DNA of 64,000 bases, from assembly GCF_006345805.1 (NCBI RefSeq), contig NC_043000.1:74090001-74154000 (forward strand). Reading direction: 5' to 3'. Shown here one piece after another: positions 864-45,476 of the stretch; the stretch's first letter is position 1, and each line of letters opens with the position of its first letter. The notes beneath the pieces are model-generated. The model searched no databases and had not been told where the DNA came from. It saw nothing but the letters and a program-made list of their open reading frames with translations. This stretch comes from Octopus sinensis. Its lineage: Eukaryota. The translations under genes were made by a program, and so were the position numbers.

Positions 864-907
<44 letters not shown>

Positions 908-1026
908 ACAATCAAGGAACGGCCATAATAGGCCATTCACCCACTAGAAATAACAGCCAAAGCTTCAACCGCAAATAAAAATCAATTCCGTAAACCAGGA
1001 GAAAATTAAAAAACATTTACCCTGTA

Positions 1027-1133
1027 ATTTCTTATACGATGCACCGTTTCATCTACTGTTTAATGGTAAACTAACCTGATTAAATTAAATCAAGCCAATC
1101 TTCCATAGGCCCTTAGATTCATCAGTAAGAAAT
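1027..1133 (-). ncRNA. Type I hammerhead ribozyme, copy 1
   Basis: Reverse complement of atttctta-CTGATGA-atcta...tagat-GAAA-cggtgcatcg-TA-taagaaat. Confidence 0.85.
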
Positions 1134-1514
1134 AGCCAAGTCGGAACAGATATTTTCACGAGGCATTTCCGACCCTACGAAGGCAATATCTGACCTAAAA
1201 TTTTCAAATCATCGCACTCGCGCCAAATTTATCGGCAGCAAATAAATATAAGCCGTCGATTCCATTACGGAATTAACCAGAAAATTCATAATTAATCAAT
1301 ATAGGGTGGCAAAAAATTTTGTAGAATTTTTTTGCCACCAGCGGCCTAGTGGGAAAAAATTAAATAGTCATAGACCATTTTTAAGTTCAACATCAACAAT
1401 CAAGGAACGGCCATAATAGGCCATTCACCCACTAGAAATAACAGCCAAAGCTTCAACCGCAAATAAAAATCAATTCCGTAAACCAGGAGAAAATTAAAAA
1501 ACATTTACCCTGTA

Positions 1515-1620
1515 ATTTCTTATACGATGCACCGTTTCATCTACTGTTTAATGGTAAACTAACCTGATTAAATTAAATCAAGCCAATCTTCCATAGGCCT
1601 TAGATTCATCAGTAAGAAAT
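1515..1620 (-). ncRNA. Type I hammerhead ribozyme, copy 2
   Basis: Same motif in the second monomer. Confidence 0.85.
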
Positions 1621-2001
1621 AGCCAAATCGGAACAGATATTTTCACGAGGCATTTCCGACCCTGCCAAGGCAATATCTGACCTAAAATTTTCAAATCATC
1701 GCACTCGCGCCAAATTTATCGGCAGCAAATAAATATAAGCCGTCGATTCCATTACGGAATTAACCAGAAAATTCATAATTAATCAATATAGGGTGGCAAA
1801 AAATTTTGTAGAATTTTTTTGCCACCAGCGGCCTAGTGGGAAAAAATTAAATAGTCATAGACCATTTTTAAGTTCAACATCAACAATCAAGGAACGGCCA
1901 TAATAGGCCATTCACCCACTAGAAATAACAGCCAAAGCTTCAACCGCAAATAAAAATCAATTCCGTAAACCAGGAGAAAATAAAAAAACATTTACCCTGT
2001 A

Positions 2002-2108
2002 ATTTCTTATACGATGCACCGTTTCATCTACTGTTTAATGGTAAACTAACCTGATTAAATTAAATCAAGCCAATCTTCCATAGGCCCTTAGATTCATCAG
2101 TAAGAAAT
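2002..2108 (-). ncRNA. Type I hammerhead ribozyme, copy 3
   Basis: Same motif in the third monomer. Confidence 0.85.
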
Positions 2109-2604
2109 AGCCAAGTCGGAACAGATATTTTCACGAGGCATTTCCGACCCTGCCAAGGCAATATCTGACCTAAAATTTTCAAATCATCGCACTCGCGCCA
2201 AATTTATCGGCAGCAAATAAATATAAGCCGGTAAATGTTTTTTAATTTTCTCCTGGTTTACGGAATTGATTTTTATTTGCGGTTGAAGCTTTGGCTGTTA
2301 TTTCTAGTGGGTGAATGGCCTATTATGGCCGTTCCTTGATTGTTGATGTTGAACTTAAAAATGGTCTATGACTATTTAATTTTTTCCCACTAGGCCGCTG
2401 GTGGCAAAAAAATTCTACAAAATTTTTTGCCACCCTATATTGATTAATTATGAATTTTCTGGTTAATTCCGTAATGGAATCGACGGCTTATATTTATTTG
2501 CTGCCGATAAATTTGGCGCGAGTGCGATGATTTGAAAATTTTAGGTCAGATATTGCTTGGCAGGGTCGGAAATGCCTCGTGAAAATATCTGTTCCGACTT
2601 GGCT

Positions 2605-2711
2605 ATTTCTTACTGATGAATCTAAGGGCCTATGGAAGATTGGCTTGATTTAATTTAATCAGGTTAGTTTACCATTAAACAGTAGATGAAACGGTGCATC
2701 GTATAAGAAAT
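2605..2711 (+). ncRNA. Type I hammerhead ribozyme, copy 4
   Basis: Stem I atttctta (2605-2612) pairs with taagaaat (2704-2711). CTGATGA 2613-2619, stem II atcta/tagat, GAAA 2688-2691, stem III cggtgcatcg, GUA cleavage triplet ending at 2703. Confidence 0.88.
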
Positions 2712-3092
2712 TACAGGGTAAATGTTTTTTAATTTTCTCCTGGTTTACGGAATTGATTTTTATTTGCGGTTGAAGCTTTGGCTGTTATTTCTAGTGGGTG
2801 AATGGCCTATTATGGCCGTTCCTTGATTGTTGATGTTGAACTTAAAAATGGTCTATGACTATTTAATTTTTTCCCACTAGGCCGCTGGTGGCAAAAAAAT
2901 TCTACAAAATTTTTTGCCACCCTATATTGATTAATTATGAATTTTCTGGTTAATTCCGTAATGGAATCGACGGCTTATATTTATTTGCTGCCGATAAATT
3001 TGGCGCGAGTGCGATGATTTGAAAATTTTAGGTCAGATATTGCCTTGGCAGGGTCGGAAATGCCTCGTGAAAATATCTGTTCCGATTTGGCT

Positions 3093-3198
3093 ATTTCTTA
3101 CTGATGAATCTAAGGGCCTATGGAAGATTGGCTTGATTTAATTTAATCAGGTTAGTTTACCATTAACAGTAGATGAAACGGTGCATCGTATAAGAAAT
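3093..3198 (+). ncRNA. Type I hammerhead ribozyme, copy 5
   Basis: Same motif. Predicted cleavage after 3190. Confidence 0.85.
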
Positions 3199-3579
3199 TA
3201 CAGGGTAAATGTTTTTTAATTTTCTCCTGGTTTACGGAATTGATTTTTATTTGCGGTTGAAGCTTTGGCTGTTATTTCTAGTGGGTGAATGGCCTATTAT
3301 GGCCGTTCCTTGATTGTTGATGTTGAACTTAAAAATGGTCTATGACTATTTAATTTTTTCCCACTAGGCCGCTGGTGGCAAAAAAATTCTACAAAATTTT
3401 TTGCCACCCTATATTGATTAATTATGAATTTTCTGGTTAATTCCGTAATGGAATCGACGGCTTATATTTATTTGCTGCCGATAAATTTGGCGCGAGTGCG
3501 ATGATTTGAAAATTTTAGGTCAGATATTGCCTTGGCAGGGTCAGAAATGCCTCGTGAAAATATCTGTTCCGACTTGGCT

Positions 3580-3686
3580 ATTTCTTACTGATGAATCTAA
3601 GGGCCTATGGAAGATTGGCTTGATTTAATTTAATCAGGTTAGTTTACCATTAAACAGTAGATGAAACGGTGCATCGTATAAGAAAT
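3580..3686 (+). ncRNA. Type I hammerhead ribozyme, copy 6
   Basis: Same motif. Predicted cleavage after 3678. Confidence 0.85.
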
Positions 3687-3904
3687 TACAGGGTAAATGT
3701 TTTTTAATTTTCTCCTGGTTTACGGAATTGATTTTTATTTGCGGTTGAAGCTTTGGCTGTTATTTCTAGTGGGTGAATGGCCTATTATGGCCGTTCCTTG
3801 ATTGTTGATGTTGAACTTAAAAATGGTCTATGACTATTTAATTTTTTCCCACTAGGCCGCTGGTGGCAAAAAAATTCTACAAAATTTTTGCCACCCTATA
3901 TTGA

Positions 3905-3979
<75 letters not shown>

Positions 3980-4238: not shown

Positions 4239-4480
4239 ATAATTGTTAAAGTGGACAACAAACATTAAGGCAAGGCAAACAATGAAAGTCTTACAGCTGA
4301 TTCTGGGATAACCCTAACTATGGGATATTCCATCATCAGAAACAAATAGGAAAAAATAGGGAAAATGAGAATGGTATATATTAGTGAGAGGATGACTTTC
4401 AATTTTTTCCAATAATAATATTGTTAACAACTTGAAATGTTTGCCTTGTCTTAATGTTTGCTGTCCTCTTTAACAATTAT
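4239..4480 (-). mobile_element. Short Penelope-like remnant with ~45-bp inverted ends and a degenerate hammerhead (4288-4343)
   Basis: ataattgttaaagtggacaacaaacattaaggcaaggcaaaca is mirrored at ~4438-4480. The minus strand reads gttt-CTGATGA-tggaata...tatccca-GAAT-cagctg-TA-agac. Confidence 0.55.
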
Positions 4481-5251: not shown

Positions 5252-6668
5252 CTACTTTGGTGTGTCATATTTGCTTTGCTTGTTATTTGAGATTGCAACC
5301 AAGAAAAAAATTGTAAAAGTCGATGGCCACAAAAGTGGCCTTGGCAAGATCATGCTGGAATGTAGCCATTTTGTCCGGTCCCATATACAATAAGACGGTA
5401 TTTCAGAATACAGCAGAGTTCGAGTGAAGTCGTCATGTTGACAAAGTTTGAAAAAAGCAGTGAGTGTAGTTTCCTTTGGTGTGGTCGCTAGCTGAGCAGC
5501 TGTTGCATCATTGAAATACATCTATTGTCTGTTTTCAAGGTGAATAGCAAGTTGTTCAATGATGGGGAGCCATTGGTACAGTGGGAAGCCAAAAATGTAC
5601 CAAAAGGTTTCATTGCTGCTAGTGTATCGGCCTTTTTGATAATCAGATACCTCTTCTCTACTGCTAAATACTTTCAAGAGGAGGGAGCAATATGGTACTA
5701 TCCAGCTGTTGTCAATTTTGCATTCACCGACCTTTGCTGTGAACCTGCCGTCTTCAGGTCTCCTGCACCTATAACAAAGGATATCTGTCATTGCCTGTCT
5801 GTGTTTCCTTTAAAAACGGCCTGTGATATCGTTTTGTACACTTTCCATCGTGTATGCATGGGGAGTTCATATTGAGTCCATGTCCACAAGGACCATCAAC
5901 CATGTTTGATGTACCTATAGAGAAGCGGTCCTTGTCAATTGACAGATAAGGTAGTTCATCAGAAATGAATTTGTCAATGTTGTTTGAACTGATTTTTGTA
6001 ACCAACCAAATCAAGATATGGGCATGTGGCAGCCCTTGTTTCTGACATTCAACCATGTGCATGTCACACCTGACAGGCCCCAAAGCCTCTCCTTTCTTTA
6101 ATAAATACATTAATTTGGATAATTTGAGGTGAAACACTCTTACTATGAGATCATGCCTGTGTCTTGGTGCTTGACCACGGAACAGTTCATTTGTAATCTC
6201 TTTCCACTTGGGATTGCATGTAAACATTATGAAAAGGTCGCCCATAATGTCATACATAAGCCATGGTGTCCTGAGTCCTCTCGTGCATATATCAGGGTCC
6301 CCCTGTGAATATTGAAGGCAAAATACACACTTGCCTAAATTGTCTGAGGATACGTCATTGTTAATTCCATCATGTAAATGAATGTAGCATTCAGATCGAA
6401 GTTTCTTTTGATTTAATTTAATGAACCATAATCTCTCGGACTCCATTTTAATGGCCATGTCAACAGCAAATTGTTGGAAAAGGTCCCGAGAATAGTATAG
6501 ATGGTTGAATGAATTGTCTCTTACCATAAATGGAAAAGTGTAGAAATCCATGCAGGTGACAGTTTTGCTAAGATGTGCCTCACCATTGCCTGCTGAATTA
6601 TGCGGAAATCTGAAATGGCATTCGCCCTTGCCATTGACAAATAGCAGTGATAAGTCTATAAGTGTCAA
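5252..6668 (-). pseudogene. Helitron RepHel, Rep (HUH endonuclease) region, frameshifted
   Basis: DLFIMFTCNPKWKEI, VECQKQGLPHAHILIW (HUH), GPCG..SPC..GKCTKRY, DNSWIVPY, QLAIHLEN, TTLTAFFKLC. Confidence 0.92.
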
Positions 6669-7501
6669 TATGTTTGTTCAGTTCAAACACAGTGTTACGT
6701 ACCACACAAACATGCAGTCCTCCATGATACCACCGCGGGATCTAGCATGAAAAAGCCTGCCGCACACATGTGGAAACCTGCTCAACAAGTTAATTACCAC
6801 TATAGAAATGGAAAAAGCAGTATCAAGAAGCCAGAAAAGCTGTCAACACAAATCCAAACTGTTGCATCTTGTCAAAGTCAATTTTCTCAATAATTTCACA
6901 ACATGAACGTCTCCACAATGCAACTACTGACTCATGGTCTTTTTCTTTTTCTTTCTTCTAAAAGAGACTTGTTTTTTTTTTCTTCTTTTAAAAGACAAGG
7001 AGCAACACTCATGTCCTGCAAATGTGAAATCAATATATTTTTTCCACGTTTGCAACAATAGTAATAAATATATACTAACTATTGAAAGGATAGAGGCAAA
7101 AATGTCCAAAAAATTACAGCATGATAAACTGGAACAAACTTCATTTAAGGTAACAAATGTTGAAGAAGCATACATATCAGAAACTTCTGGTAGCTTATGA
7201 GAGTACGTAAGTAAAAATGCCTACCACTTGTCAAAAGTCAAAAATGAAGTGTGATCCTAGGTCGGACTTGACCTATATAAATAGGAGTGATATCGCTTAA
7301 TGAACAACACTCCAGTTGTCTGGTTGGTTAGATAATACAAATAAGTGTGATGAAATCTGCTGAACACAACTCACTGATGTGTGGTTGGCCAGAAGTTGCC
7401 ATTTCACACTTAATTGAGGTGCAATTACTAATCAATCATTCACACAGTTTAGGCATGATTGTGAAATAGCAAAATCCACATACAATAGGTGTTAAAACTT
7501 A

Positions 7502-8300: not shown

Positions 8301-8736
8301 GATTACATATATATATAAATATATTAGCATTAAAGACCTGTCATTGCCGGGTCATAGTGCTAGTGCATGTATATATATGTATTTATTAGTGTACATATTA
8401 CATGTACATCTATATATATACATCTACACATAAAATGCAAAATACAAAGTTATATCTTGATATCGCTAGTGATAACAATACTCAAAATATATAACAGACT
8501 GGAATTGTTTTATTACAACCCACAAGGGGCGAACACAGAGGGGACAATACAACCTGATGTGGGGTCAGATTCTCGAATGGGGTTACAAAAAAGATGAGAT
8601 TAAAAATTCACAACAATACAAAAATATAAAATCGAATGAAGAACAGACCGGAAGACATTACGGATGGAGTGGGGGCGGGTTTAGCTCGAACCGCACGAGC
8701 CCCGCCTCACCACTGATACTTTGGTTTCGTCTTGTT

Positions 8737-11518
8737 TTACTTTCGTGCTACATCCTTCCATCGTTCTTCATACACTTCCTTAGTCAGGCATTTTCTCTCC
8801 GGCCCTATCTTCCTTTTTAGGTGAAAGATGAAGTAATTCATCAATCCAGGGCTGGAGATGAACTTGCCTGACCGTAAACCTTTCATCCTAGTCTTCCAAA
8901 TCACCTCTCTTGCAATTGCTACTACAACGAGAAAACAATTCTTGCCTTCTTTTGCGAGGAAATCTGGTGGGTCAATTTTTATAATAGACTCAGTCGACAG
9001 CTGTACTCTTCGTGTGCTTGACAACAGCTGTTCGGCATAAACCCACACCTCAGACACGACCGAGCAATGAACAATAGCGTATGGGACGGTTTCCCTATCC
9101 CGCCCGAATCTTGGACATATCGGACTGCCTTTCCACCGTGCCTTGCGAATCAGGGCAAAGAACGACGGATAGGCGGTAGGTGATAACCGATGCGATAAAC
9201 ACATTGGCTACCTCCGCCCTTCCTTTCAGGGATAGCCACCGCCAAGACCAGGTCTTGGCTACTGCAGCCACCCTGCTCGATACCTCGCCCCAATTCTTCT
9301 CTATTTGGAGGTCTGGTCCAAACCAAACCCCTAGCAACTTAATCGGACCCTCCGTCCAACGTCCCACGACGCTGTCAGGAGGCATCGACTTGCCTCTCCA
9401 GGTGCCGAGCTGCAAGCCGACTGACTTTTCACGATTAACCTGTCACCGTCTCGTAAACCTCTTTGGCCTTGCCTACCCTCTGTAGGTGATCCATTTCGGT
9501 TACGATGATGGTGATGTCATCCCATCCGCGTAAGCTGACACCGATTTTCCACAACCTGGCTGTCTCGGGATGCCGCTCAGTTTTCGCAGTAATGGCTCAA
9601 GAGCCACCACGTACAAAAGCGGGGAGAGCGGACACCCTTGACGAACCGAGCGCTTGATATTGAACGGCTTCGAAAAGAAGCCGTTCACCCGAACTACCGC
9701 GTCGATGTTATCGTAAATTTGAATAATCCACCTGAAGAAGCCAAGGCCCAGCCCGAACTGTGCCAGAACGGACACCAGGTAGCGATGGTCGACCCTATCA
9801 AATGCTTTAGATAGGTCTAAATGAATCAGTGCTCCACCCTTGCCAGAATCACTATTAAACCCCTCTATAGTGTACCGCATAAGATGGAGATTATCCTGTT
9901 TGGTTCTGCCGGGAACGGCACATGTCTGTGCCTCCCCGATCAGACCATCCGCGACACATTTTGGCCAAAATCTTCAACTCTGTGTTTAGCAGAGTGATGG
10001 GCCTGAAATTATCAATGCATTCTCCCTTGTTCGGGTCCTTTCTGACAAGCGTCACTACTCCCCGGCGCACAGATCTGGGAATGAACCCGTTCTGCTGCCA
10101 GTTCGCATAGACCTCGTCAGTAGCTGCCCGAACAAGTCTGGCATACTCTTATATAAGTCATAGGGTAGACCATCCAAACCCGGCGCCCTGCCCGCGCCGC
10201 AGTCCACCATTGCCTCAACCACCTCCTCAGGCGTGATTGGCCCTTCACATCTCGCCCCGATAGTAAAGTCCCTCCTCCTATCCGGTCCGCCGCCCACACC
10301 GAAAAGCTGAGCGAAGTGCTCCTGAAAGGCCTCACACATCTCCTCCGGTTCGTTTATCAACTCACCTTGTTCGTTCGTCAAAGATCGAATCGTGGGGTCA
10401 TTACCACGCTGAGCTTCCACCACTCGGGGACATCTCACGGCGTTGATTCCTTCACAACCCATTGCGCGGATCCTAGCCCTGACAATGCAGTCCATGTGTT
10501 TGGCCTCGAGGTGCTGGTTTAACGCCAGTCTCTTGGCCTTCACGTGAGCCGCAGAGCCAGTTTTCAAGGCTTCCTCTAATTCCTTAACTAGAGTTGATTC
10601 CCTCCTAGCCTCTCTAGCCACTAATCCTATGCTATATCTAATAGTCTCGAATTTGATGACTCGCTTGAGGGCATACCACCATTTGTTATCAATGATGGCA
10701 CCAGATAGCGCCCTCTGGATTATAGTCCTAATCCGGTCTCTGTACTCCTTAATCGCCAAAAGGGGCGTATTAAGTTTCCAATAACCGGAGCCTCTATTAT
10801 TAGCCTTATCTATGTCAAGCTTACAGGTGACCATTTTATGATCACTGTAGCTAACCGGGTAAAACTGTGGACACTTAGCTATTTCTCTGTCTACTTTTCT
10901 AATTAGTATCCTCTCTATGTATGACCTGGAAGATCCATCGCTGCTTGACCATGTCCACAATGGAGCGTTCGGAAATTCCAACCTATAAGGATCTGCTAGC
11001 TCAAAGCGGCTTAGCAGTTCCAGGAAGCCAATGTTACCTTTTCTATCTGGACGCAAGCCAACACAATCTACATCCGCTTTGCAAATTGTGTTAAAGTCTC
11101 CTAGCACAACTAATGAATGCGAAGTACCAAGAAAGTTTTCCAGTTCTCGAAAATAATCACTTTGCCCTTTTTGGTTGGGTGCGTAAATCGCAACCAGTCT
11201 GATAACTTTACCGTTACTGAACGTCAAATCCATGACGACCAGCCTACCTTCTGGGTCTGAAAAAATTAACTTTTTCTCAAAAACCCGGTTTTGTTTTAAT
11301 AAGACCAACACCCCACCCCCGCCGGTAGGACTGGCCGGAGAGAAAAAACTCTCGTAGCCGTCGAACAGCGGGAGCAGACCTCTTGTCCCCTCTAACCGGG
11401 TTTCTGTAGCAACAATGACATCCAAATTACGCGACCTGATATCATTAAGGAAACGACCTTGTTTCCCGTTTGATCCCAGGCCGCGCACATTTAAACAACC
11501 AACATAAATGTAATCCAC
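8737..11518 (-). pseudogene. Tx1-like ORF2 (APE endonuclease, RT, C-terminal Zn finger), disrupted
   Basis: LNVRGL, GDFN, SDH, GYWKLN, PGLDGLP, SKAFDRV, RQGCPLSP and YAD motifs spread over several frames. Confidence 0.9.
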
Positions 11519-11531
11519 GGCTTACCTTATA

Positions 11532-12877
11532 TCAGTGGTTCGACTTGTTCGTCTTCTTCTTCTTCATTTTTTCCCTCTTTTTCCGGGCTCGTGGGGGAGG
11601 CCGACGTAGGCCCTCGTATATATATGGAGATATGTCCATTCTCAGAGGGCCCACGTCGTGAAAGAATTCGGACTTTATCCGTCCGTAATCCTTCCGGCCT
11701 TTCGTTTTTTTAATTTTTTCCACCTTTGCCATAGCTGCCAAAACGTTAATCAACCTGTTGTTGGCTGCCTTAATGGCCATAAATGTATTCGTAGTTTCTT
11801 TTCTTTTTTTTTTGGCTCACTTTCAGAGTGGTGGTTTCTGTTTTCCGTTTATTCATGGTGATTTTTGACCACCCCTCCTCTTTTTCCTTTTCTTCGCCGC
11901 TTGTTGTTTCTGTTGCTTCTTTTTTTTTCTGTTGATACTATTGTTTCTGTAGTTTCTGGTGTTTTCGCTTCTGGTTTTTCCTTTTCTGGCGGTGCTGCTA
12001 CCTGCGGTTTAGGTTGGCACTCCGCTCTCACGTGCCCCTTTTTACCGCAGCCAAAACACCTCGGCTTTCTGCCCTCCACAAACACTATCACCCTCTCCTC
12101 TTCGTTGATCTTCAACGTCTCCGGAATTTCTTCCAACGTCTGTACCTCCGCCTGTATCGCCATTGAGATGCATTGGCCTTGCCAATACTCCTCCTCCTCT
12201 ACTGTAGCCTGGAGGATAGTGATCTTGTCCTCCAGGCCTAACATCACTGCCGCCACCAGACATGTGGCGTCTGTCTCTGGGGGAATGTTGTTTATTTTGA
12301 TCTTCGAGGTCCTTCTGCCTCTGTACAGGGGGAGGAGGACTATATTTTCCGCTTTTAGAGGTTCACTTGATAGCTTCTTAGCTATATCTTCTGTCCTGAA
12401 CCTCACTTCTACCGTTCCGAATTTTCTTCCACGGTTTATGTAGGTGATGTCCTGCCATATTGTCTTCAGACAACACTCGATTTTCTTCTCTTCCACTCTT
12501 TGAATGGTTTTCATCGTCGTATTATACGTTTTGTAAATTACCCTTCTTTTATCCACTTCCTCTGTCTTGCTGACGTCCGGTATTACTGTCACTTCATTAC
12601 CTTCCTTTTTCAAACATGCTGCATATTTTTCCAGGTTGCTTCTTTCAGTGTTAATTTTTTCCAGTTTTTTGCCCGCAACCCCTGAAAACTTCTTAGTAGG
12701 GGCTTCTCCTGCTTTCGGCAACACCGCCGGTGAGCTTTCTTCACCTGATACAGGTGAATAGGAAATAGTGGTATCCATCTCTGGATGTGGCTTAACAAGC
12801 CTTTCAATTGGCTTTAACAAGCCTTCAAAAAATCCTGGCTTCGCAAGCCTTTTGTGTGTATTTTTAAATTGTTCCAC
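11532..12877 (-). pseudogene. Tx1-like ORF1 (Zn knuckle CFGCGKKGHVRAEC), frameshift near 11850
   Basis: ORFs 11849-12877 and 11532-11780. Homologous to the ORF1 at 33633-34909. Confidence 0.85.
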
Positions 12878-13046
12878 AATAATTCCCCCGCCGGGGGGGG
12901 GGGATTTTAATACGTAGCCTTCGCGCGAAGGCTAATAACAGTTTTTACACAAAAGACACAATATATAAAACACAGTAACAGAAATTATATTAACAAACCG
13001 GTAATAATCAGCAATCGACAAAACAGACTGGCGTATAACAGACTGG

Positions 13047-14788
13047 AATGATTTTTTTATTTACCATAAAGGTTAACACAGAGATGGACAACACACCCGG
13101 GGAACTTAAAATAAGAAACCAAATGACAAGAAAAGGAAAAAATAAAAGCAATAATGAAATATGAAAGAATATTTACAATGAGATGTAAATGTCCACTCGA
13201 TCCCCGGAATCAAGAGGTTACATTTTCGTCAGTTTTTTCACATATATTTCACCAAATTTTTTCTTTTTTTTTTTTTTCTCCTCACAATCTTACACATATT
13301 CTATGATTGTTTCCACTTCTCTGAAGTCCATCACTGAATCCGCAGGTAGCCGCTCTCTCATTCGAACCTTCGTGAAAAATATTACATTTTCCCCGGCAGC
13401 TTTGAAGAACTCAGCGGCTACTTCCTCGGGGATTAGAGCAGTCCCCTCCCACCGGTCGGTCATCCTGTTGATCCATACATGTCCCTCCGTTTCAGTTGTT
13501 ACATCGGTCATTTCAGGGCAGAGTAATCCCGCTTCCGTCCTGTATTTTCCTTCATCTTCCCTTTCGGGCTTATTTCTTCCTTGTTCTCCTCTCTTTGTTT
13601 CTCTCTTTCTCTCTTTTTGCCTTCTTTTCTTTCACCTTCCTTCTCTTGTCTTTTTGGCTCTTTTTCTGTTTTCTCTTTATCTCGTACTTTATGTTCCTTT
13701 CCTGTAGTTTCTTTTTCCTTTTGTGTACCGTCTTTTCTTTTCGCTTGACTCTGTTCTTTGTCTTGTTTTTTCCCTGTTGTTTCTCTTTCCTTTTTTTCTC
13801 TTGACTTTGTTTTGGTTCTATTAATTCCTTTTCTTTTATTTCTTTTTCCTTCATTGACTTATTATTTTCTTTCTCTTGTTGTTTTGTTTCCTTTTCTTTG
13901 CTTTCTTTCTCATTTAATGTATTATTCTTTTCCTCAAGTTCCTTTTCCTGTTCACACTCCGCTACGAATTCATATAACGGGCACTCCTTTTTAATGTGCC
14001 CCCTTGTCCCACACAAGTAACAATTAGGTTTTCTCCCCTCTACGATTGCGCTGAGAGTATTTTCGTCTTCCACCTCTATTCTGTAGGGAAACCTTTCAAT
14101 GTCTTCTGTTGTGGCCAACAGCCACAATTCCACCCCCATATCCTTTCCAGTTCATCACGTTTGACTCCTTAATCGATTCCACCTCCACTTCCTCTTCTGC
14201 TGCTCCTAGAATGGCTGTTGCCAACCATGTTCGGGATTTTAACTCGAACCCCTCTTCTTCCCTTGTATGAGGGCCACATTGTAAATTTGTCCGCTCTTAG
14301 TACGGTGGTAGCCAGCGAGGCTGCAATTTCCTCCGTTGCACAACTCACCTCCACCGTACCAAATTTCTTGCCTCTACTCACATAGGTAATTTTTTTCCAT
14401 TATGTCTCCCAGACATTTCTCAATTTCGTCTATCTCTATTCTTGCCAGTTTCCTTGTATTCCTGTCTTGAGTTCTATATGTCACCGTCTTGTTTTCTTTA
14501 TCCTCTTTTGTTTTCGCGGGGGGGATTAGCTTCACCCTATCACCCTCCCTTTTGAAAAGCTTTTCATATTCTTTGAGTTTCTCCTTCTCAAAGAACACCT
14601 CCCTTACAATTAGCGACGAATCGCTTTTTTTTCCGGTGACCCCCGCGTAAGTCGCCATGACTAGTGGGTCAATTCACCTTCTTCAAAAGGTTTCAACACG
14701 TGGAGGCAAACGCCTCGCGCGATACCAAATCAATTCACACACAGAAAAAATTCACCGTCTTATCACAACTAACAACACCCGAACAATT
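13047..14788 (-). mobile_element. ORF1-only non-autonomous Tx1 derivative (HAL1-like), family C copy 1
   Basis: ORF1 pieces 13290-14658 with CYLCGTRGHIKKEC and a K/E-rich tail. No ORF2. Own 3' UTR with AATAAA. Confidence 0.85.
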
Positions 14789-14798
14789 AACAGACTGG

Positions 14799-16553
14799 AA
14801 TGATTTTTTTTATTTGCCATAAAGGTTAACACAGAGATGGACAACACACCCGGGGAACTTAAGATAAGAAAGCAAATGACAAGAAAAGGAAAAAATTATA
14901 AGTAATAATGAAATATGAAAGAATATTTACAATGAGATGTAAATGTCCACTCGATCCCCGGAATCAAGAGGTTACATTTTCGTCAGTTTTTTCACATATA
15001 TTTCACCAAATTTTTTCTTTTTTTTTTCTTTTTTTTCTCCTCACAATCTTACACATATTCTATGATTGTTTCCACTTCTCTGAAGTTCATCACTGAATCC
15101 GCAGGTAGCCGCTCTCTCACTCGAACCTTCGTGAAAAATATTACATTTTCCCCGGCAGCTTTGAAGAACTCAGCGGCTACTTCCTCGGGGATTAGAGCAG
15201 TCCCCTGCCACCGGTTGGTCATCCTGTTGACCCATACATGTCCCTCTGTTTCAGCCGCTACATCGGTCACTTCAAGGCAGAGGTGGTAGGTTATCAATCT
15301 ATAACAGTAGCAATCCCGCCTCCGTCCCGTACTCTCCCTCATACTCCCCTTCGGGCCCACCTCTTCCCTGCTTTCCTCTCCTTGTCTCTCTCCCTCTCTC
15401 CCCCTGCCCTCCTCTCCTTCACCCTCCTTCCCCCATCCCTCCGGCTCCTCCTCTGCTCTCTCCCCATCTCACACTTCACGCTCCCCTCCTGCAGCTTCCC
15501 CTTCCTTCCGCGTACCTTCCCTTCCCTTCGCTTGACTCCGCTCCTCGTCCTGTCTCTTCCCTGCTGCTTCTCCTTCCCCCTCCTTCTCTTGACTCTGTCT
15601 TGGCTCCACCGATTCCCCTTCTTCCACTTCTTCCTCCTTCACTGACTTATTATTTCCCTTCTCCTGCCGCCCCGCTTCCCTTTCCTTGCCCTCCCTCTCA
15701 TCCAATGCACTATTCCTCTCTTCAACTTGCCCCCCCTGCTCACACTCCGCAACAATTGGGCCCCCTCCCATCCACGATTACGCTGAGGGTCCCCTCGTCC
15801 TCCACCTCCATTCTGTAGAGAAACCCCTCAATGTCCTCTGCTGCGGCCAACAGCCACACACAATTCCACCCCACATCCCTCCCAGCTCCCCACGCTTGAC
15901 TCCCCAATCGATTCCACCTCCACCTCCTCCGCCGCCGCTCCCAGAATGGCTGCTGCCAACCATTCATTTTCAACTTCTGGGGTCATGTTCGGGATTCCAA
16001 CTCAAACCCCTCCTCCTCCCCTGTGTGAGGGCCACACTGTGAACTTTTCGACTCCCAGCACGGTGGTATCCAGCGAGGCTGCAACTTCCTCCGTTGCACA
16101 TCTCACCCCCACCGCACCAAACTTCTTGCCTCCACTCACATAAGTCATTTTTCCCATCATGTCTCCCAGACACCTCTCGACCTCCTCTATCTCCACTTCC
16201 GCCAGCTTCCTTGCACTCCTGTCTTGGGTTCCACATGTCACCGTCTTGCCCTCTCTATCCTCCTTTGCTTTCGCGGGGGGGGGGGGGGGACCAGCCTCAT
16301 GCTATCACCCTCCCCTTCGAAAAGCCTTTCATACTCTTTGAGCCTCTCCCTCCCAAAGAACACCTCCCCTACAATCAGCGACGAATCGCTTCTCCCTCCG
16401 GCGACCCCCGCGCAAGTCGCCATGACTAGAGAGCAAATTCACCCTCTTCAAAAGGTTCCAACACGTGGAGGCAAACGCCTCGCGCGATACCAAATCAACT
16501 CACACACAGAAAAAATTCACCGTCATATCACAACCAACAACACCCGGACAATT
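14799..16553 (-). mobile_element. ORF1-only element, family C copy 2, A-to-G hypermutated
   Basis: Collinear with 13047-14788. The 3' ~430 bp is near-identical and the remainder has dense plus-strand T>C changes. Confidence 0.9.
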
Positions 16554-19500
16554 AACAGACTGGAATTGTTTTATTACAACCCACTAGGGGCGAACACAGA
16601 GGGGACAATACAACCTGATGTGGGGTCAGATTCTCAAATGGGGTTACAAAAAAGATGAGTTTAAAAATTCACAACAATACAAAAATGTAAAAACGAATGA
16701 AGAACAGACCGGAAGACATTACGGATGGAGTGGGGGCGGGTTTAGCTCGGACCCCACGAGCCCCGCCTCCCCACTGATACTTTGGTTTCGTCTAGTTTTA
16801 CATTTACGTGGTGTCATCCACTCGCAACTTTCGTGCTACATCTTTCCATCGTTCTTCATGCACTTTCTTAGTCAGGCATTTTCTCTCCAGCCCTATCTTC
16901 CTTTTTAGGTGAAAGATGGAGTAATTCATCAGTCCAGGGCCGGAGATGAACTTGCCTGACCGTAAACCTTTCATCCTGGTCTTCCAAATCACCTCTCTCG
17001 CAATTGCTACAACAACGAGAAAACAATTCTTACCTTCTTTCGCGAGGAAATCTGGTGGGTCAATTTTTATAATAGACTCAGTCGACAGCTGTACTTTTCA
17101 TGTGCTTGACAACAGCTATTCGGCATAAACCCACACCTCAGACACGACCGAACAATGAACAATAGCGTGTGGGACGGTTTCCCTATCCCGCCCGAATCTT
17201 GGACATATCGGACTGCCTTGGCCACCGTGCCTTGCGAGTTTATCCCGAACAGGTAGAGCTCCTCTGTAACAATGCCGTGCCAGAGACTTTTGGAAGTTGT
17301 CCAGGCTCTTTGGCCCGAATGTACGTTGGAACAGACTGGCCAGCTGATTATCGTCGAGACCTAGGGCTTCCTCCAAGGTATCTTCACATTCCGCCTCTAC
17401 CAACCCTCTATAAAAGAATGTGGTGGAACCCCCACCGGAGGCGTTGTCCGAGCGACAGAATAGCAGGAGAGCCTTGCGACACTCCGTGTACCATGTGCCC
17501 AGTTTCGATCTACGATTCAGCCAGGTTTCCCATCCACCGAAACTAGTGAACTTGGGAAACATCAGTTTTGCTAGCGGAGACCACACCCGTTCACCATCCA
17601 GGTAGAGCCGCAGATGCCTTAACCACAGCGCATGTCTGCGCATCATCAGCCAAGGAATCCCTAGCCCACCATTTAACGGTTGTTGACAGCAAGTAGAGCG
17701 TTTCACAAGTGGTTTCCCGCCCTTCTCCAAAAAGTAGAAGAGCTGTCTTTCCAACTTGATCAACCACGAATCAGGGCAAGGAACGACGGATAGGCGGTGG
17801 GTGATAACCGATGCAATAAACACATTGGCTACCTCCGCCAAGACCAGGTCTTGGCTACTGCAGCCACCCTGCTCGATACCTCGCCCCAGTTCTTCTCTAT
17901 TTGGAGGTCTGGACCGAACCAAACCCCGAGCAACTTAATCGGACCCTCCGTCCAACGTCCCACGACGCTGTCTGGAGGCATCGACTTGCCTCTCCAGGTG
18001 CCGAGCTGCAAGCCGACTGACTTTTCACGATTAACCTTTGCTCCTGTTACCGTTTCGAAAACCTCTATGGCCTTGCCTACCCTCTGTAGGTGATCCATTT
18101 CGGTTACGATGATGGTGATGTCATCCGCGTACGCTGACACCGATTTTCCACAACCTGGCTGTCTCCGGATGCCGTTCAGTTTTCGCAGTAATGGCTCAAG
18201 AGCCATCACGTACAAAAGCGGGGAGAGCGGACACTCTTGACGAACCGAGCGCTTGATGTTGAACGGCTTCGAAAAGAAGCCGTTCATCCGAACTACCGAG
18301 TTGATGTTATCGTAAATTTGAATAATCCACCTGAGGAAGCCAAGGCCCAACCCGATCTGTGCCAGGACGGACACCAGGTAGCGATGGTCGACCCTATCAA
18401 TTGCCTCACCCTTGCCAGAATCACTATTAAACCCCTCTATAGTGTAACGCATAAGATGGAGATTATCCTGAATGGATCTGCCGGGAACGGCACATGTCTG
18501 TGCCTCCCCGATCAGGCCATCCGTGACACGCGCCAATCTTTTCGATAACACTTTGGCCAAAATCTTCAACTCTGTGTTTAGCAGAGTGATGGGCCTGAAA
18601 TTATCAATGCACTCCCCCTTGCTCGGGTCCTGTCTAACAAGTGTCACTACTCCCCGGCGCACAGATCTGGGTATGAACCCGTTTTGCTGCCAGTTCGCAT
18701 AGACCTCCGTCAGTAGGTGCCCGAACAAGTCTGGCAAACTCTTACGTAACTCGTAGTTAGTATCCTATCTAATTAGTATCCTATCTATGTATGACCTGGA
18801 AGATCCATCGCTGCTTGACCGTGTCCACAATGGAGCGTTCGGAAATTCCAACCTATAAGGATCTGCTAGCTTAAAGAGGCTTAGCAGTTCCAGGAAGCCA
18901 ATGTTACCTTTTCTATCTGGACGCAAGCCAACACAATCTACATCCGCTTTGCAAATTGTGTTAAAGTCTCCTAGTACAACTAAGGAATGTGAAGTACTAA
19001 GAAACTTCTCCAGCTCTCGAAAATAATCACTTTGCCCCTTTTGGTTGGGTGCGTAAATTGCAACCAGTCTGATAACTTTACCGTTACTGAACGTCAAATC
19101 TATGACGACCAGCCTACCTTCTGGATCTGAAAAAATTAACTTTTTCTCAAAAACCCGGTTTCTTTTTAATAAGACCAACACCCCACCCCCGCCGGTAGGA
19201 CTGGCCGGAGAGAAAAAACTCTCGTAGCCGTCGGACAGCGGGAGCAGACCTCTTGTCCCCTCTAACCGGGTTTCTGTAGCAACAATGACATCCAAATTAA
19301 CCGACCTGATATCATTAAGGAAACGACCTTGTTTCCCGCTTGATCCCAGGCCGCGCACATTTAAACAACCAACATAAATGTAATCCATAGCTTACCTTAT
19401 ATCAGTGGTTCGAGTTTTTCTCCTTCTTCTTCACTTTTTTCTTTTTCCCGGACTCGTGGGGGAGTCTGACGCAGGCCCTCGTATATATATGGTGAAGATA

Positions 19501-20234
19501 TATCCATTCTTAGAGGGCCCACGTCATGATAGAATTCGGACTTTATCCGTCCGTAATCCTTCCGGCCTATTCTGTACAAAATAAAATCTTTTGTTTTTTT
19601 AATTTTCTCCACTTTTGCCATAGCTGCTAAAACGTTGGTTAATCTATTATTAGATGCCTTAATGGCCATAAATGAGTTCGTGGTTTCCTTTCTTTCTTTT
19701 TTTTGGCTCACTTTCAGAGGGGTGGTTATGTTTTTCGTTTTTTCTTTATGATTTTCGACCACCCCTCCTCATTTTCATTTTCCTCGCAGCTTGTTGTTTC
19801 TTCTGTTGCTTCTGCTGCCTCTTCTCTTTCTGTTGTTTTTTCTGGGTTTTCTGGTGTTGCCTCTGGTGGTGCTTCTTGTTTTTCCTTTTCTGGCTGAGCT
19901 GCTTCCTGCGGTTTAGGTTGGCACTCTACCCTCACGTGCCCCTTTTTACCGCAGCCGAAGCACCTCGACCTTCTGCCTTCTACGAAGACCACCACTCTTT
20001 CCTCCTCGCTGATCCTCAACGTCTCTGGGATTTCGTCTAGCGTTTGCACCTCTGCCTGAATTGCCATTGATATGCATTGACCTTGCCAATGCTCAGTGTA
20101 AGAAATATGAACGCACGTGGTCGCATTGTGTAGGGAATACGATCGCACGTGGTCATATTCTTAACGAATTATTATAAGCCATAGATACAATGCAGTACCA
20201 AAAGAAACATAGGTGAATTGACGCCAAGCCGTAC

Positions 20235-28417: not shown

Positions 28418-29904
28418 TTAAATCAGTTCCATTACCTTTCTCAGGTCGTTGTAATTTTCCATCTCTCGTGGGTATCTTAGCAGTCGGCACTTCGCATGCC
28501 TTATTACGTTCACACCGGCGGCATCGATAAACGCATCGGCGCTGTCTTCATGGACCAGTGCACCCGTTTCCCTCCACTCCGTGCCCATCCTGACCCATGA
28601 ATATCCCTCTGTTTCACTTATTAATTCCTCCATCTCCCCACAGTGTCTGTAATGAACCAATGTTCCATAAAATTTATACCTTCTATTTGAACCTATGTTC
28701 TCTTTAGTTTTCCTCTTCGGACCTACTTCTTCTTTACCTTCCTCTCTCAGTTATTCTCTTTCTCTCTTTTTGCTTTCCTTTTCTTTTTCCTTCTCTTGTC
28801 TTTTTGGCTCTTTGTCTGTCGTATGTTCTTTTCCTGTTTTTCTTTTTCTTTTTGTGTAACATCCTTTCCTTTCTCTTGATTCTGTTCCTTCTCTTGTTTT
28901 TTTCCTGTTTTTTCTCTTTCCGTTATTTTACTTTCTTTTTCTTTCTCTTGATTTTGTTTTGGTTCTTTCTCTATTACTTCTCTACCCTGTGGCTTTTGTT
29001 CTTTTTCTATTAATTTCTTCCCTTTGATTTCATTTTTCTTCCGTGTATTGTTATTTCCTTTTACCGTTGTTTCCTTTTCCTTGTTTTCTTTCTCCTTTAG
29101 TGTATTGTTCCTTTCTTCGGGTTCTTTTTCCTTCTCTTCTTTGTTTTCCTCTGCTCTTTCACACTCCGCCATAAATTCGTATAGCGGACATTCTTTTTTT
29201 ATGTGTCCTCTTGTCCCACACAAGTAGCAGTTAGGTTTCCTCCCCTCCACGATTACGCTGGGGGTTTTTCCATCTTCTACTTCTATTTGGAAGGGAATCT
29301 GTTTTATATCTCTGTTTGTGGCAGTCAGCCACATCTCTACCCCGAATCCCTTCCATTTCACTATGTTGGTCTCCTTTATCGACCCAATTTCTATCTCTTC
29401 CTCAGCTGACCCTAGGATGGCTGTTACCAGCCATTCTGTCTTCAATTCTGGGGGTATATTTGGGATTTTGACCCGTACCCCTCTTCTCCCTTTGTAAGTA
29501 GGCCACATGATAAAGTTTTCGGCTCGGAGTACGGTGGTAGCTAGCGAGGCCGCAACTTCCACCGTACCATATTTCTTGCCTTTGCACACAAAGGTTGCCT
29601 TCTTCATTACGTCGTCCAGACATTTTTCGATCTCTTCTATTGCTATTCTTGATAGCTTTCTTGTGATCTTGTCTTGTGTTCTATAAATTATTGTCTTGTC
29701 TTCATTTTCCTCCTTTGCTTCAGCAGGAGGGACCAGTTTCACGCTGTCACCCTCCCTTTCAACGAATTTCTCAAACTCTTTTAGCTGTTCTTTTTTGAAG
29801 AACACTTCTCTTACTGTAAGCGACGTATCGCTTTTCATTGCGGCGACCCCCGCGTAAGTCTCCATGACTTGAGGGTCGGCACACCTTCTACAAAAAGGTT
29901 GCAA
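28418..29904 (-). pseudogene. ORF1 protein of the ORF1-only element (Zn knuckle, K/E-rich region, distinct C-terminal domain)
   Basis: 385-aa ORF plus downstream 80-aa ORF. Homologous to 13290-14658. Confidence 0.8.
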
Positions 29905-30390
29905 CGCGCAGCGGCAAACGCCTCGCGCGATTCAATTTTCAATTTCTATACACAAAAATTACTAACTACTTAACGCAATCAATGAAACTGGACTTGTTTT
30001 ATTAATACTCACAAGGGGCGAACATAGAGGGGACAATACAACCTGATGTGGGGTCAGATTAACGGATGGGATTACAAAAAAGGTGAATTTAAAAATTTAC
30101 AAAAATGACAAAATAGCAAAAAATCGAATGAAGAACAGACCGGAAGACATTACGGATGGAGTGGGAGCGGGTTTAGCTCGGACCCCACGAGCCCCGCCTC
30201 CCCACTGATACTTTGGTTTCGTCTAGTTTTACATTTATGTCGTATCATCCACTCGCAACTTTCGTGCTACATCTTTCCATCGTTCTTCGTACACTCTCTT
30301 AGTCAGGCATTTTCTCTCCAGCCCTATCTTCCTTTTCAGGTGAATGAAGTAATTCATCAAACCAGGGCCGGAGATGAACTTGCCTGACCG

Positions 30391-35153: not shown

Positions 35154-38100
35154 ACTTGTTAGCTCTTATTTCTTTATTCACCATACGGTTATACATATAA
35201 AGACAGAACATCACGAATGATTTTACGTCAATATGTGTTGGGGTCTATTAAAAATTTACAAATGATTATATAATTCGGATGATAGGACATTTTTTACACA
35301 AACAATTTCACAGATGGAATGGGGCGGGCTTACGGACCCCACGAACCCCGCCCCGACACTGATCTTAGGTTTTTTTTTTTCCTTTTTTTTCCGGCTTACC
35401 TCGCATTCATGAGGGTCCTTTTACTCACAACATTCTTCCATCTTTCATCGAACACTTTCTTACTCAGGCCCCTCCTCTCTAGTTCTATTTGTCTTTTTAG
35501 GTGGAATTTAAAATGTTCCACCAGACTAGAACCAGAGATGAAGTTGCCTGCTATCACCCCTTTCATCCTCGTCTTCCATACTGCCTGTTTCGCAATTGAA
35601 ACCACAGAGAGAAAACAATTCTTACCTTCTTTCGTTAAGAAATTCGGTGGGTCAATTTTTACAATGGATTCAGTCGATAGCTGTACTCTTCCTCCACTTG
35701 ACAACAGTTGTTCGGCAAAAACCCACATGTCTGCCACTTCCGAGCACTGCACGACCGCGTGCGAGACGGTTTCCCTGTCTCGCCCACACCGCGGACAGGT
35801 CGGGCTGACTTGGCCACCGTGCCTTGCGAGTTTATCCCGAACAGGTAAGGCTCCTCGGTAACACTGCCAAGCTAAGGACTTCTGAAAATTATCCAGGGTC
35901 CTCGGCCCAAATGTACGTTGGAACAGACTGGCCAGCTGATTATCGTCGAAACCTAGGGTTTCCCCTAACGTATCATCGCAACCGGCCTCTACAAACCTTC
36001 TATAGAAAACAGCGGTAGACCCACTGCCGCAGGCATTGCCCGAGCGACGGAATAGTCGGAGTACCTTGCGACACTCCGTATACCATGTATCCAACTTCGA
36101 TCTGCGATTATACCAGGCTTCCCGTCCACCAAAACTGGTGAACTTGGGAAGCATCTGTTTCGCCAACGGAGACCACACCCGTTCACCATCCAGATGGAGC
36201 CACAGATGCCTTAACCTCAGCGCATTTCTGCGCATCATTAGCCACGGCATCCCTAGTCCACCCTTTAACGGTTTTTGACAACAAACAGAGCGTCTCACAA
36301 GTGGTTTCGAGTTCTTCCACAAAAAGTGAAAGAGCTGTCTTTCCAACTTGGTCAACCACGAATCCGGACAAGGCACGACGGTAAGGCGGTAGGTGATCAC
36401 CGATGCGATGAACGCATTGGCTACCTCCGCCCTACCTTTCAGGGATAACCACCGCCAAGACCAGGTCTTGGCTACTGCAGCCACCCTGCTCGATACCTCG
36501 CTCCAGTTCTTCTCTATTTGGAGGTCTGGTCCGAACCAAACCCCGAGCAACTTAATCGGACCCTCCGTCCAACGTCCCACGACGCTGTCTGAAGGCATCG
36601 ACTTGCCTCTCCAGGTGCCGAGCTGCAAGCCGACTGACTTTTCGCGATTAACTTTTGCTCCTGTCACCGTCTCGTAAACTTCTATGGCCTTGCCTACTTT
36701 ACGTAGGAGGTCCACTTCAGTCACGATGATAGTGATGTCATCCGCGTACGCCGAAACCGACATTCCACGACCTGGCTGCCTCGGGATGCCACTCAGTTTT
36801 CGCAGCAGCGGCTCGAGAGCCACTACATACAAAAGCGGGGAGGGTGGGCATCCTTGACGAACCGAGCATTTGACTCTGAACGGCTTAGAAATAAAGCCGT
36901 TCACCCGAACTACCGAGTCGACGTTATCGTACATTTCGATGATCCACCTGAGGAAGCCAAGACCCAGGCCGAACTGAGCCAGAACAGACACCAGGTAATG
37001 ATGGTTGACCCTATCGAAAGCTTTTGATTGGTCTAAATGGACCACTGCCCCTCCCTTGCCGGGATCGCTATTAATTCCCTCTATAGTGTATCTAATTAGA
37101 TGGAGATTATCCCGAATGGACCTGCCAGGTACGGCACACGTTTGTGCCTTCCCTATTAGTCCATCCGCGACACGCGCCAATCTGTTCGATAACACTTTGG
37201 CCAAAATCTTCAGCTCTGCGTTAAGCAGAGTGATGGGCCTAAAATTATCAATGACATACCCCTTGTCCGAGTCCTTCCTGATTAGTGTCACCACTCCCCG
37301 GCGCCCAGATCTGGGAATAAACCCATTCTGCTGCCAGTTCGCGTAGACGTTCGCCAGTAAGTCCCCGAACAAGTCCGGCATACTTTTATAAAGCTCGTAG
37401 GGTAGACCATCCAGTCCTGGCGCCTTACCCGCGCCGCAGTCAGCCATGGCCTCTATTACTTCCCCAGGCGTGATCGGCTCCTCAATACACTTCGCGTCCT
37501 GCTCCGAGAGGCGCGGTAGCCCGTCAAGGAGGTCCGTTAGGTCCCTCCTCCTATCCGGTCCGCCGCTCCCCCCAAAGAGCCGGGCGAAGTGGTCCTGAAA
37601 AGCTTCACACATCTCCTCGGGCTCGTCTATCAACTTACCTTGTTGGTTCGTCAAAGATCGAATTGTGGCATCGTTGCCACGTTGGGCTTCCACCACTCGG
37701 GCCCATCTTGCGGCATTAATTCCTTCGCTCCCCATTGCACGTTGTCTAGCCCTGACAATGCAACCCATGTGTTTGGCTTCGAGGTGCTGGTTCAAAACCA
37801 GTCTCTTGACCTTCACCTGGGCTGCCGTGCCAGTTCGCATTGCTTCCTCTAAGTCCTTAACTAGTGCTGATTCCCTTCTAGCCTCTCTAGCTACTAGATC
37901 TATACTATATCTAATGGACTCATATCTGATGGCTCGCTTGAGGGCATACCACCATTTGTTGTTAATTATGGTTCCGGTCAAAGCCCTCTGAATCATTAAC
38001 CTTATCCTGTCACTGTACTCCTTAATCGCCAAAAGGGACGTATTAAGTTTCCAGTAACCAGGACCTCTATTCGTCTTATCTATGTCTAGCCTACAGGTGA

Positions 38101-41404: not shown

Positions 41405-42204
41405 ATGGACACGCTAAAACCAACAACAGAGGCCGATATACCAACCACGCAAGCAGCTTTAACCATGAAGGTCCCGGTTTTTTGGTCCAACGACCCAGCC
41501 CTGTGGTTCGTCCACATAGAAGCACAATTCGCCGCGAATAGAATCAAGCACGCGAATAGAATCAAGCACCGCCAGGCACGGTGTCGTACGAAGCTTTCCG
41601 CAAGGAATTAATAATGCGAACTACCGCATCACAGCAGAGACGACTCAACCAACTCGTATCTGCAGAAGAGTTGGGGGACAGAAAACCGTCCCAACTGCTG
41701 CGTAAAATGAGACAGCTGATGGAGGGCCAACCGCTGTTAGAAGAGGTCCTGAAACGGCTTTTTCTACAGCGCCTGCCCTTACCAATGCAGGGCATTCTGG
41801 CGTCGACGAACGACACAGCAACCCCGGAGGAATTTGCGCATGTCGCAGATAGAATCGCTGAGGTGTCAAACCCCTTTTCTTCTGTGGCACAAATCAACCA
41901 TCGGACGAACCCTTTCGAAGCGTCCTCAGACTCTACCTCCGAGATTGCAGAGCTGCGAGCTATGATCAGAGAGCAGGCTGGTCAAATTAAAGCCCTCACA
42001 AACAAGCTAGAAAACTGGACCTTGGAAACACACCGGCGGCGCAGCAACAGTTCATCAAGATCCACTCACCGTCGAAGATCCAGAAGTCCCAGTCAAAATC
42101 GTGTGTCTGGAAACATCTGCTGGTATCACGCAGAATTCGGCGCACGGGCATCTAGGTGCAAGGCCCCGTGCTCTTTTCTGAATACCACCCAGGGAAACGG
42201 GTAG
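41405..42204 (+). pseudogene. Gypsy gag, disrupted
   Basis: PVFW..DPALWF..IEAQF, LGDRKPSQLLRKM, CWYHAEFG..A.RC..PC. Confidence 0.88.
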
Positions 42205-45200: not shown

Positions 45201-45476
45201 GACACCATCTCCACTAATCTTCAACCTCCATATTCTGGCCCTTACCGTGTCCTAGAAACACACCCAAAATATTTTGTCATCGATCAAAATGGTAAACAGA
45301 ATTCTGTCAGTGTGGACAGATTAAAAAAAGCCATCATGGACACGATTACGGTTTCTACGCCAGAAACTCCAGCAGCTTGCATTCCCAGCAAACCACCTGT
45401 TTCATCTCCAGTCACAAGAAGTGGACGACGTGTCCATTGGCCCGCCAAGTTGGCACAATACGTGAAATATCGTTAA
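42200..45476 (+). pseudogene. Gypsy pol (protease, RT, RNase H, integrase), frameshifted
   Basis: [53 protein letters not shown]. Confidence 0.92.

Follow-up and report, generated by a model that had tools for sequence, protein, structure and literature searches.

Heavily A-to-G-substituted copies of an ORF1-only retrotransposon in the Octopus sinensis genome, best explained as ADAR-edited RNA returned to DNA

Retrotransposons of the analysed window

The window, i.e., the whole 64,000-nt stretch of DNA that was analysed (C4:74090001-74154000 of the 2.72-Gb Octopus sinensis genome, 13,516 contigs), contains a minus-strand nest of head-to-tail non-LTR retrotransposons. Two types of unit were distinguished: (i) autonomous-type elements, in which ORF1 is accompanied by an ORF2 containing endonuclease, RVT_1 and zf-RVT domains, and (ii) ORF1-only units, two of which, the 1.75-kb copies A and B, are sandwiched between two autonomous-type elements and code solely for a zinc-knuckle ORF1. 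Compared with solved structures, the ORF2 of the autonomous partner matched human L1 ORF2p best (E 6e-52), R2 reaching only 1e-23, and by its sequence the partner is assignable to the L1 group. Copy B is an ORF1-only (HAL1-like) unit of an L1/Tx1-type non-LTR family, where the Tx1 part of the label is our presumption from general traits (zinc-knuckle ORF1, shared target sites). An ORF of 460-469 codons is retained in 12 of the 60 full-length family copies; the unit contains no ORF2, and the zf-CCHC domain was found in copies A and C. The following features were annotated, with positions counted from the first nucleotide of the window:

14788..16555, minus strand: copy B, an ORF1-only (HAL1-like) non-LTR unit with a short 5' UTR, broken ORF1, 3' UTR and short A-rich tail (alignment to A and genome copies)
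15230..16535, minus strand: A>G hypermutated tract of B, with 209 sense A>G changes, ~40% of As (184 of the 459 As with a defined 5' neighbour) and an ADAR-type neighbour bias (alignment)
14802..15229, minus strand: 3' part of B, nearly edit-free, comprising the ORF1 end and 3' UTR, with 1 T>C (alignment)
16421..16423, minus strand: start codon of ORF1 in B, whose frame runs for 61 codons to the first stop
16275..16289, minus strand: homopolymer (G) run in B, 8 nt longer than in A (alignment)
15750..15751, minus strand: site of a 56-nt deletion private to B, which takes out most of the CCHC zinc-knuckle codons (alignment; zf-CCHC in sister A)
16549..16566, no strand: 18-bp direct repeat bordering B on its 5' side, resembling a target site duplication (sequence)
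14784..14801, no strand: 18-bp direct repeat at the junction shared by B (its 3' side) and A (its 5' side) (sequence)
13036..14790, minus strand: copy A, the unedited sister unit, with ORF1 broken after 94 codons and private deletions of 23 and 28 nt
8493..13035, minus strand: downstream autonomous-type partner (ORF1 at 11849-12931, APE-RT ORF2 in pieces), without A>G excess
16553..20094, minus strand: upstream partial autonomous-type element, its 3' tail abutting B, without A>G excess
28692..29935, minus strand: copy C, a divergent ORF1-only unit with a 385-aa ORF containing zf-CCHC, which served as outgroup

Marks of retrotransposition are present, namely the A-rich 3' tail of B, which resembles the tail of the autonomous partner, the 18-bp direct repeats flanking B and the 11-bp repeats flanking a solo copy on contig C11; within arrays, such direct repeats also fit tandem duplication. 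Head-to-tail stacks of ORF1-only units, in many cases with an autonomous element immediately downstream, occur in the window (8493-38990) and at C1:127.29 Mb, C9:0.65 Mb, C29:15.93 Mb and C10072. Each stacked unit is preceded by an identical, locus-specific repeat of 11-20 nt, a pattern that suggests repeated insertion at one target site. Many of the arrays occupy one position of a common repeat (e.g., at locus L118 around 4300-4430 and 6205-6350), and about 10 loci have identical upstream and downstream flanks. An Rfam search of two edited loci, including this common host repeat, gave no matches.

Several other structures were observed in the window. Two autonomous-type elements with 91% identity (35169-38990 and 48873-52704) lie in inverted orientation about 10 kb apart and form a possible fold-back source of dsRNA; neither carries an A>G excess. 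The region 904-3912 is built of inverted and tandem repeats with 99% identity, in units of ~0.5 kb between AT microsatellites, and is either a recent palindrome or an assembly artefact. Frames at 41560-45476 and 54465-59962 were presumptively labelled, from the ORF list, as LTR-retrotransposon-like fragments (gag, protease, RT and integrase), and the 302-aa frame at 5769-6677 is presumably related to Helitron replication proteins.

Direction, neighbour context and genomic presence of the changes in copy B

Alignment of A (13036-14790) with B (14788-16560) revealed, on the plus strand, 210 T>C changes, 10 A>G, 9 C>T, 9 G>A and 24 transversions. The spectrum is thus strongly asymmetric (T>C 210 vs C>T 9, p = 7e-51), and the longest unbroken run of T>C mismatches comprises 30 changes. 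A preliminary description of this DNA had proposed that dense T>C changes (A>G in the sense strand) cover about 1.3 kb of B relative to its sister; indeed, within 15230-16535, C stands at 209 of the 531 aligned T, vs 43 other changes. Only 1 of the 210 T>C changes falls in 14788-15229, so the 3' ~430 bp is, as described, essentially unedited. The N-terminal translations quoted in that description are also correct.

The direction of change was established from two sources. In the outgroup copy C, the 210 T>C columns hold T in 149 cases, C in 36, G in 11, A in 5 and a gap in 9, and the majority letter among 44 genome copies, read in the sense direction, is A at 186 of the 209 edited columns and G at 11. 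Both support A as the ancestral letter, as had been claimed from the third copy of the window, and the direction is therefore A>G in B. When changes were polarised at columns where copy A and the closest third copy, on contig C12, agree, 190 of the 227 changes in B were sense A>G and only 7 were G>A; the APOBEC-type pattern (sense G>A) is consequently not that of B, the family majority being A.

The edited adenosines show a pronounced neighbour bias. In B, the fraction edited after U was 26/43 (0.60), after A 133/225 (0.59), after C 16/55 (0.29) and after G 9/136 (0.07; G vs rest, p = 2e-24), which upholds the proposed avoidance of A after G (9/136 vs 159/268 after A or U). By 3' neighbour, the values were 31/57 for C, 56/118 for G, 20/54 for U and 69/224 for A (G vs rest, p = 0.03). 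Pooling B with four further edited copies gave 5' neighbour rates of 0.36 for A, 0.33 for U, 0.16 for C and 0.03 for G (31 of 923 As after G), and 3' neighbour rates in the order G (0.33), C (0.27), A (0.19) and U (0.18); G follows 261 of the 708 edited sites (37%) vs 26% of all As. Human ADAR rules are 5' U>A>C>G and 3' G>C~A>U (PMC3113232). The 5' preference (U~A > C >> G) observed here matches these rules; the pooled 3' preference (G > C > A~U) fits the human rule but not the A-leaning motif reported for octopus hyper-edited reads (PMC5625713).

Copies A and B and the C12 copy are siblings separated by nearly equal distances. Copy A was ruled out as the template or source of B by its private 23- and 28-nt deletions and by this near-equidistance. 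A tandem duplication of A into B was likewise rejected, given the private deletions of A and the fact that A and B share just 3 derived changes relative to the C12 copy. Finally, the idea of B as a chimera with a 3' end acquired from A found no support, informative sites being alike on either side of the editing boundary.

The presence of the changes in genomic DNA was checked in public sequencing data. In a word index, 11 of the 24 listed public runs contain the edited stretch, 9 of them with at least half of its words, and the containing runs come from 7 studies and bear 4 organism labels; the kinds of these runs are guessed or unrecorded (none is recorded as RNA, which says nothing about expression), and the best-matching run is possibly the assembly's own sample. 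Contigs from all 4 aligned runs match long parts of 15780-16488, each with 0-6 differing letters, and their depth is low and even; two differences are common to three runs, like alleles. Of the T>C changes in the stretch matched by these contigs, 74 fall in 15800-16399; contigs were aligned on 15780-16900 only, and for the 3' half of the tract the evidence is the word index. Among the contigs of the 4 runs, none spans the whole edited stretch or clearly bridges the junctions of B. An assembly or polishing artefact, e.g., edited cDNA reads polished into the genome, would gain some room from the guessed or unrecorded run kinds, from a comparison made with contigs only and from the want of a contig over the whole stretch. 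The wide occurrence of at least half of the edited words (9 runs), the spread of containing runs over studies and labels, and contigs of four runs matching at even depth with allele-like differences already largely refute such an artefact, whose probability we regard as practically negligible. Sequencing data thus agree with the preliminary description, as do the asymmetric spectrum, the depletion of 5' G and the A of the family consensus; none of the outcomes named there as contradicting it occurred.

The G run at 16275-16289 is 6 nt shorter than in the window in contigs of 3 of the 4 runs, and still out of frame; the difference is possibly an assembly over-call or a length polymorphism. This run bears on the coding capacity of B. 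The change A>G is unable to create a stop codon, and the frame of B ends after 61 codons through a frameshift at the G run, so editing did not break it; the frame of unedited A ends after 94 codons, and three other edited copies keep an open ORF1 of 466-468 codons. The earlier proposal that editing inactivated B thus failed as regards the frame, which is broken by indels, in sister A too. Its other part, loss of the zinc knuckle by deletion, stands: the 56-nt deletion at 15750/15751, inside the zinc-knuckle codons, was found in B alone among 6 aligned copies. The edited copies with an open frame carry 20-43 missense codons within the first 238, and loss of function through such missense changes is plausible.

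Edited copies in the family and in the autonomous partner

A total of 138 copies or segments no shorter than 300 nt came from a pattern census and from similarity searches with A, B and another edited copy, the searches being biased towards edited copies. Five of them are hyper-A>G: B and the copies at C4:117404972, C6:95025950, C10072:30779 and C11:75872431, and all five are edited on the sense strand. Clusters of T>C, G>A or C>T were found in none of the 138; those ranking next belong to divergent subfamilies, in which A>G and G>A are in balance. A pattern for mirror-strand (sense T>C) editing gave two single-change candidates, both of which turned out to be just divergent copies. A less biased count, at one 22-nt site, gave 5 matches with edited letters vs 95 exact unedited matches (~5%), a count that misses copies with other changes in the site on both sides.

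Relative to the majority of 65 unedited copies, the other four edited copies carry 156, 150, 134 and 100 A>G changes vs 8, 4, 20 and 2 other changes, with the same context bias as in B. The C11 copy (100 A>G, 2 other changes) is a solo insertion between 11-bp direct repeats. Units and autonomous elements adjoining edited copies have balanced A>G and G>A, although they are near-identical to them. The family searches recovered four copies beyond B, separately edited and each confined to one unit, which strengthens the reading through an RNA intermediate.

The separateness of these events was judged from shared changes. In all 6 pairs of the four copies, no derived change other than edits is shared, 59-75 edited sites are shared per pair and the edit sets differ; the editing events thus look separate on sequence grounds. 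In total, 159 sites are G in one copy only and 22 sites are G in all 5, and the overlap per pair (59-84 sites) exceeds the 34-73 expected from trinucleotide context. Copy B, although placed on a separate branch with A and the C12 copy, overlaps with the others as much, which favours shared hot spots over descent. Hot spots of wider context would explain the excess, with some common descent or gene conversion not strictly excluded. The overlap above context expectation and the 22 common sites are also what one old G-rich subfamily, or descent from a single mutated master copy, would leave. We consider these readings, as well as a reversed polarity, extremely unlikely, given the 159 sites that are G in a single copy, the lack of any other derived change shared by the four young copies, the equal overlap of B from its separate branch and, for the polarity, the A found in both family majority and outgroup.

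The ends of the four young copies are under-edited: the 5' UTR (nt 1-119) has 4 edits vs 22.9 expected, and the part beyond nt 1350 has 36 vs 94.5 expected. The 3' editing boundary lies inside ORF1, ~150-200 nt before its stop and not at the stop. Limits of the duplex, cover by protein, or selection for a recognisable 3' end could account for the under-edited ends.

The autonomous partner was surveyed at two ORF2 sites of one subfamily, where G-tolerant patterns matched 173 and 202 copies; among the 100 matches listed for each site, 99 are unchanged and one carries a single G. Patterns that demand G at one favoured A matched only that single copy per site, and neither has a local A>G excess. 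The contrast between 5/100 ORF1-only and 0/173 autonomous copies, drawn from these two sites of one subfamily, gives p = 0.006, or p = 0.013-0.017 at an assumed per-site sensitivity of 0.4-0.5. Under cis-preference, translation of its own ORF2 protein is required of an autonomous RNA, whereas the 3' end is enough for a passenger, and this is the simple reading of the contrast; alternatively, the ORF2 region may be without antisense RNA.

Origin of the edited copies and their relation to known systems

The hypermutation is, in our judgement with high probability, real, genomic and recurrent, and best explained by ADAR-edited RNA returned to DNA through retrotransposition. According to this explanation, RNA of copy B would have been hyper-edited by ADAR while paired with antisense RNA, the inosines would have been read as G by the reverse transcriptase, and the edited RNA would have been reverse-transcribed and inserted into germline DNA by the enzyme of the partner element, presumably by target-primed insertion in trans via the shared 3' tail. 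Autonomous RNAs would rarely survive such editing, their own ORF2 translation being needed first, though this step is the weaker one. The proposal that a hyper-edited, dsRNA-derived transcript was retrotransposed is thereby supported by direction, strand, neighbour bias, public data and four more copies. From the same data we infer ADAR as the enzyme and a long sense-antisense duplex as its substrate, as well as the order of events: the edits were most likely made before insertion, because adjacent units are unedited, all cases are on the sense strand and the C11 copy is solo.

A duplex formed by the sense RNA itself fits the data poorly. Over the first 238 codons, a limit set by a frameshift in the reference copy, the edits show no relation to predicted self-pairing (rho 0.05, p 0.57), and 77 of the 93 predicted-unpaired sites are edited in at least one copy; the purine-rich sense RNA is unlikely to fold into a long duplex. 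Since, in addition, no inverted copy was found in the window, in its two 10-kb flanks or in the fetched flanks of the other edited copies, the sense RNA was probably paired with a separate antisense RNA, a kind of ADAR substrate that has been described (PMC9989829). The genome contains 17 A_deamin matches (best exon vs human ADAR2, E 2e-102), with an ADAR2-type deaminase domain encoded in two large exons at C6:2970442-2972870. A further full-length deaminase match, at C2502:263721-264758, has internal stops and may be a processed pseudogene.

Some observations count against ADAR-edited RNA as the source: the excess of edited sites shared between copies, the under-edited ends, and a pooled 3' G preference (37%) above the 20-25% of octopus hyper-edited reads, in which A is preferred downstream (PMC5625713). 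In the data covered, in which no run is on record as RNA, no edited transcript, antisense RNA or source locus came to light. In human cells, moreover, the restriction of L1 by ADAR1 did not depend on editing, and no editing of L1 RNA was found (PMC5224506).

Two mechanisms acting at or after reverse transcription were weighed against it. The first is deamination of DNA by an adenosine deaminase (ADAR or other), either of the sense strand paired with antisense RNA after insertion or of the new second strand during insertion. In model substrates, the DNA strand of a DNA:RNA hybrid can be edited by ADARs, although the reported activity requires dA-C mismatches or mutant enzymes (PMC12925331), and a similar neighbour bias would be expected; the tracts, however, end within one unit despite near-identical head-to-tail neighbours, and all five lie on the sense strand, with no first-strand (sense T>C) case among the 138 copies or segments, which leaves DNA editing unlikely. 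The second is a burst of C incorporation opposite A by the reverse transcriptase, due to pool imbalance or an error-prone enzyme and involving no editing enzyme. It would likewise be strand-specific, limited to one unit and all-or-none, but it leaves unexplained both the sparing of A after G (31/923 pooled) and the 3' G preference. Moreover, 15-40% of As are changed with as few as 2 other changes, far beyond polymerase error, and the autonomous partner, which uses the same enzyme, showed no case at two sites; such a burst is therefore highly unlikely.

If ADAR-edited RNA is indeed the source, a wider reading may be put forward tentatively, one that we hold possible but somewhat short of probable: ADAR would act as a recurrent germline mutagen with a filter. 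About 1 in 20 passenger insertions would stem from hyper-edited RNA, while autonomous copies would stay unedited, edited RNA being unable to make ORF2 protein. As A>G never creates a stop, passengers would land with an open, heavily recoded ORF1, a one-step protein diversifier; the tracts would mark the extent of RNA duplexes, and array units would have been inserted one RNA at a time.

A-to-I editing is usually treated as dying with the RNA, and the copies described here indicate that it can be written into heritable DNA, in bursts of 100-200 changes and repeatedly, in an animal. They form a dated record of germline ADAR specificity, since the number of other changes, from 2 (C11) to 37 (B), implies that editing took place at more than one time. 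The copies also bear on whether ADAR mutates or restricts retrotransposons via editing (PMC5224506, PMC4982230). Because passenger and autonomous elements differ, the idea of editing as a restriction filter becomes testable by counting. On the practical side, pipelines that detect RNA editing by realigning A>G-rich reads can be misled by edited copies in the genome, and repeat ages can be distorted.

Replacement of organelle genes by edited cDNA is known in plants and trypanosomes. The literature searched, from which most subscription papers are missing, contained no account of non-LTR copies hyper-edited in the ADAR manner and fixed in the genome of an animal; the available part of PMC5974252 likewise gave nothing on re-integration of edited RNA, and a 2016 review described a mutational effect of ADAR on Alu copies as "not yet determined" (PMC4982230). 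An atlas search returned generic reverse-transcriptase clusters only.

Five known systems share features with the copies described here. (i) ORF1-only non-autonomous LINEs, i.e., HAL1 (half-L1), HeT-A and Ag-Sponge (PMC5753468, PMC5786205), similarly encode an ORF1-type protein only, have a 3' tail in common with an autonomous L1-group partner and form head-to-tail arrays; HAL1 proper is a mammalian L1 derivative, whereas the octopus unit is independent and is marked by a zinc-knuckle ORF1 and by shared target sites. (ii) Restriction of L1 by ADAR1 (PMC5224506) resembles the present case in that ADAR meets non-LTR RNA, and differs in that the edited copies did integrate here. (iii) ADAR hyper-editing of repeat-derived dsRNA, highest in octopus among animals (PMC5625713, PMC9989829), also produces dense A>G clusters in young repeats with upstream G depleted; those are RNA changes over an unchanged genome, with A downstream, while the changes reported here are in DNA and lean towards downstream G. 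(iv) APOBEC "DNA-edited" LTR retroelements fixed in vertebrate genomes (PMC4866542, PMC2873906) show strand-biased, clustered deamination with hundreds of changes per copy, seen by comparison with sister copies. Those scars are G>A, arise from cytidine deamination of cDNA, affect LTR elements and were absent from the 19 invertebrates screened (PMC4866542), whereas the octopus copies, as their ADAR counterpart, are A>G, in ADAR context and non-LTR. The APOBEC screens kept only G-to-A clusters with G in the consensus (PMC4866542, PMC2873906), so copies like B were not sought. (v) Precedents are A>G hypermutated retroviral DNAs of Rous-associated virus, avian leukosis virus and HTLV-2/STLV-3 (PMC12925331), in which A-to-I editing of retroelement RNA is similarly recorded as A>G in reverse-transcribed DNA, at up to about half of the As. 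Those viruses are exogenous, with editing over U3 or an inverted repeat, in contrast to the endogenous, inherited non-LTR copies found here, in which editing extends over 1.3-1.6 kb and affects ~5% of family copies. To these retroviral precedents the window adds a census of the family, the observation that editing stays within single units, and the difference seen between passenger and autonomous elements.
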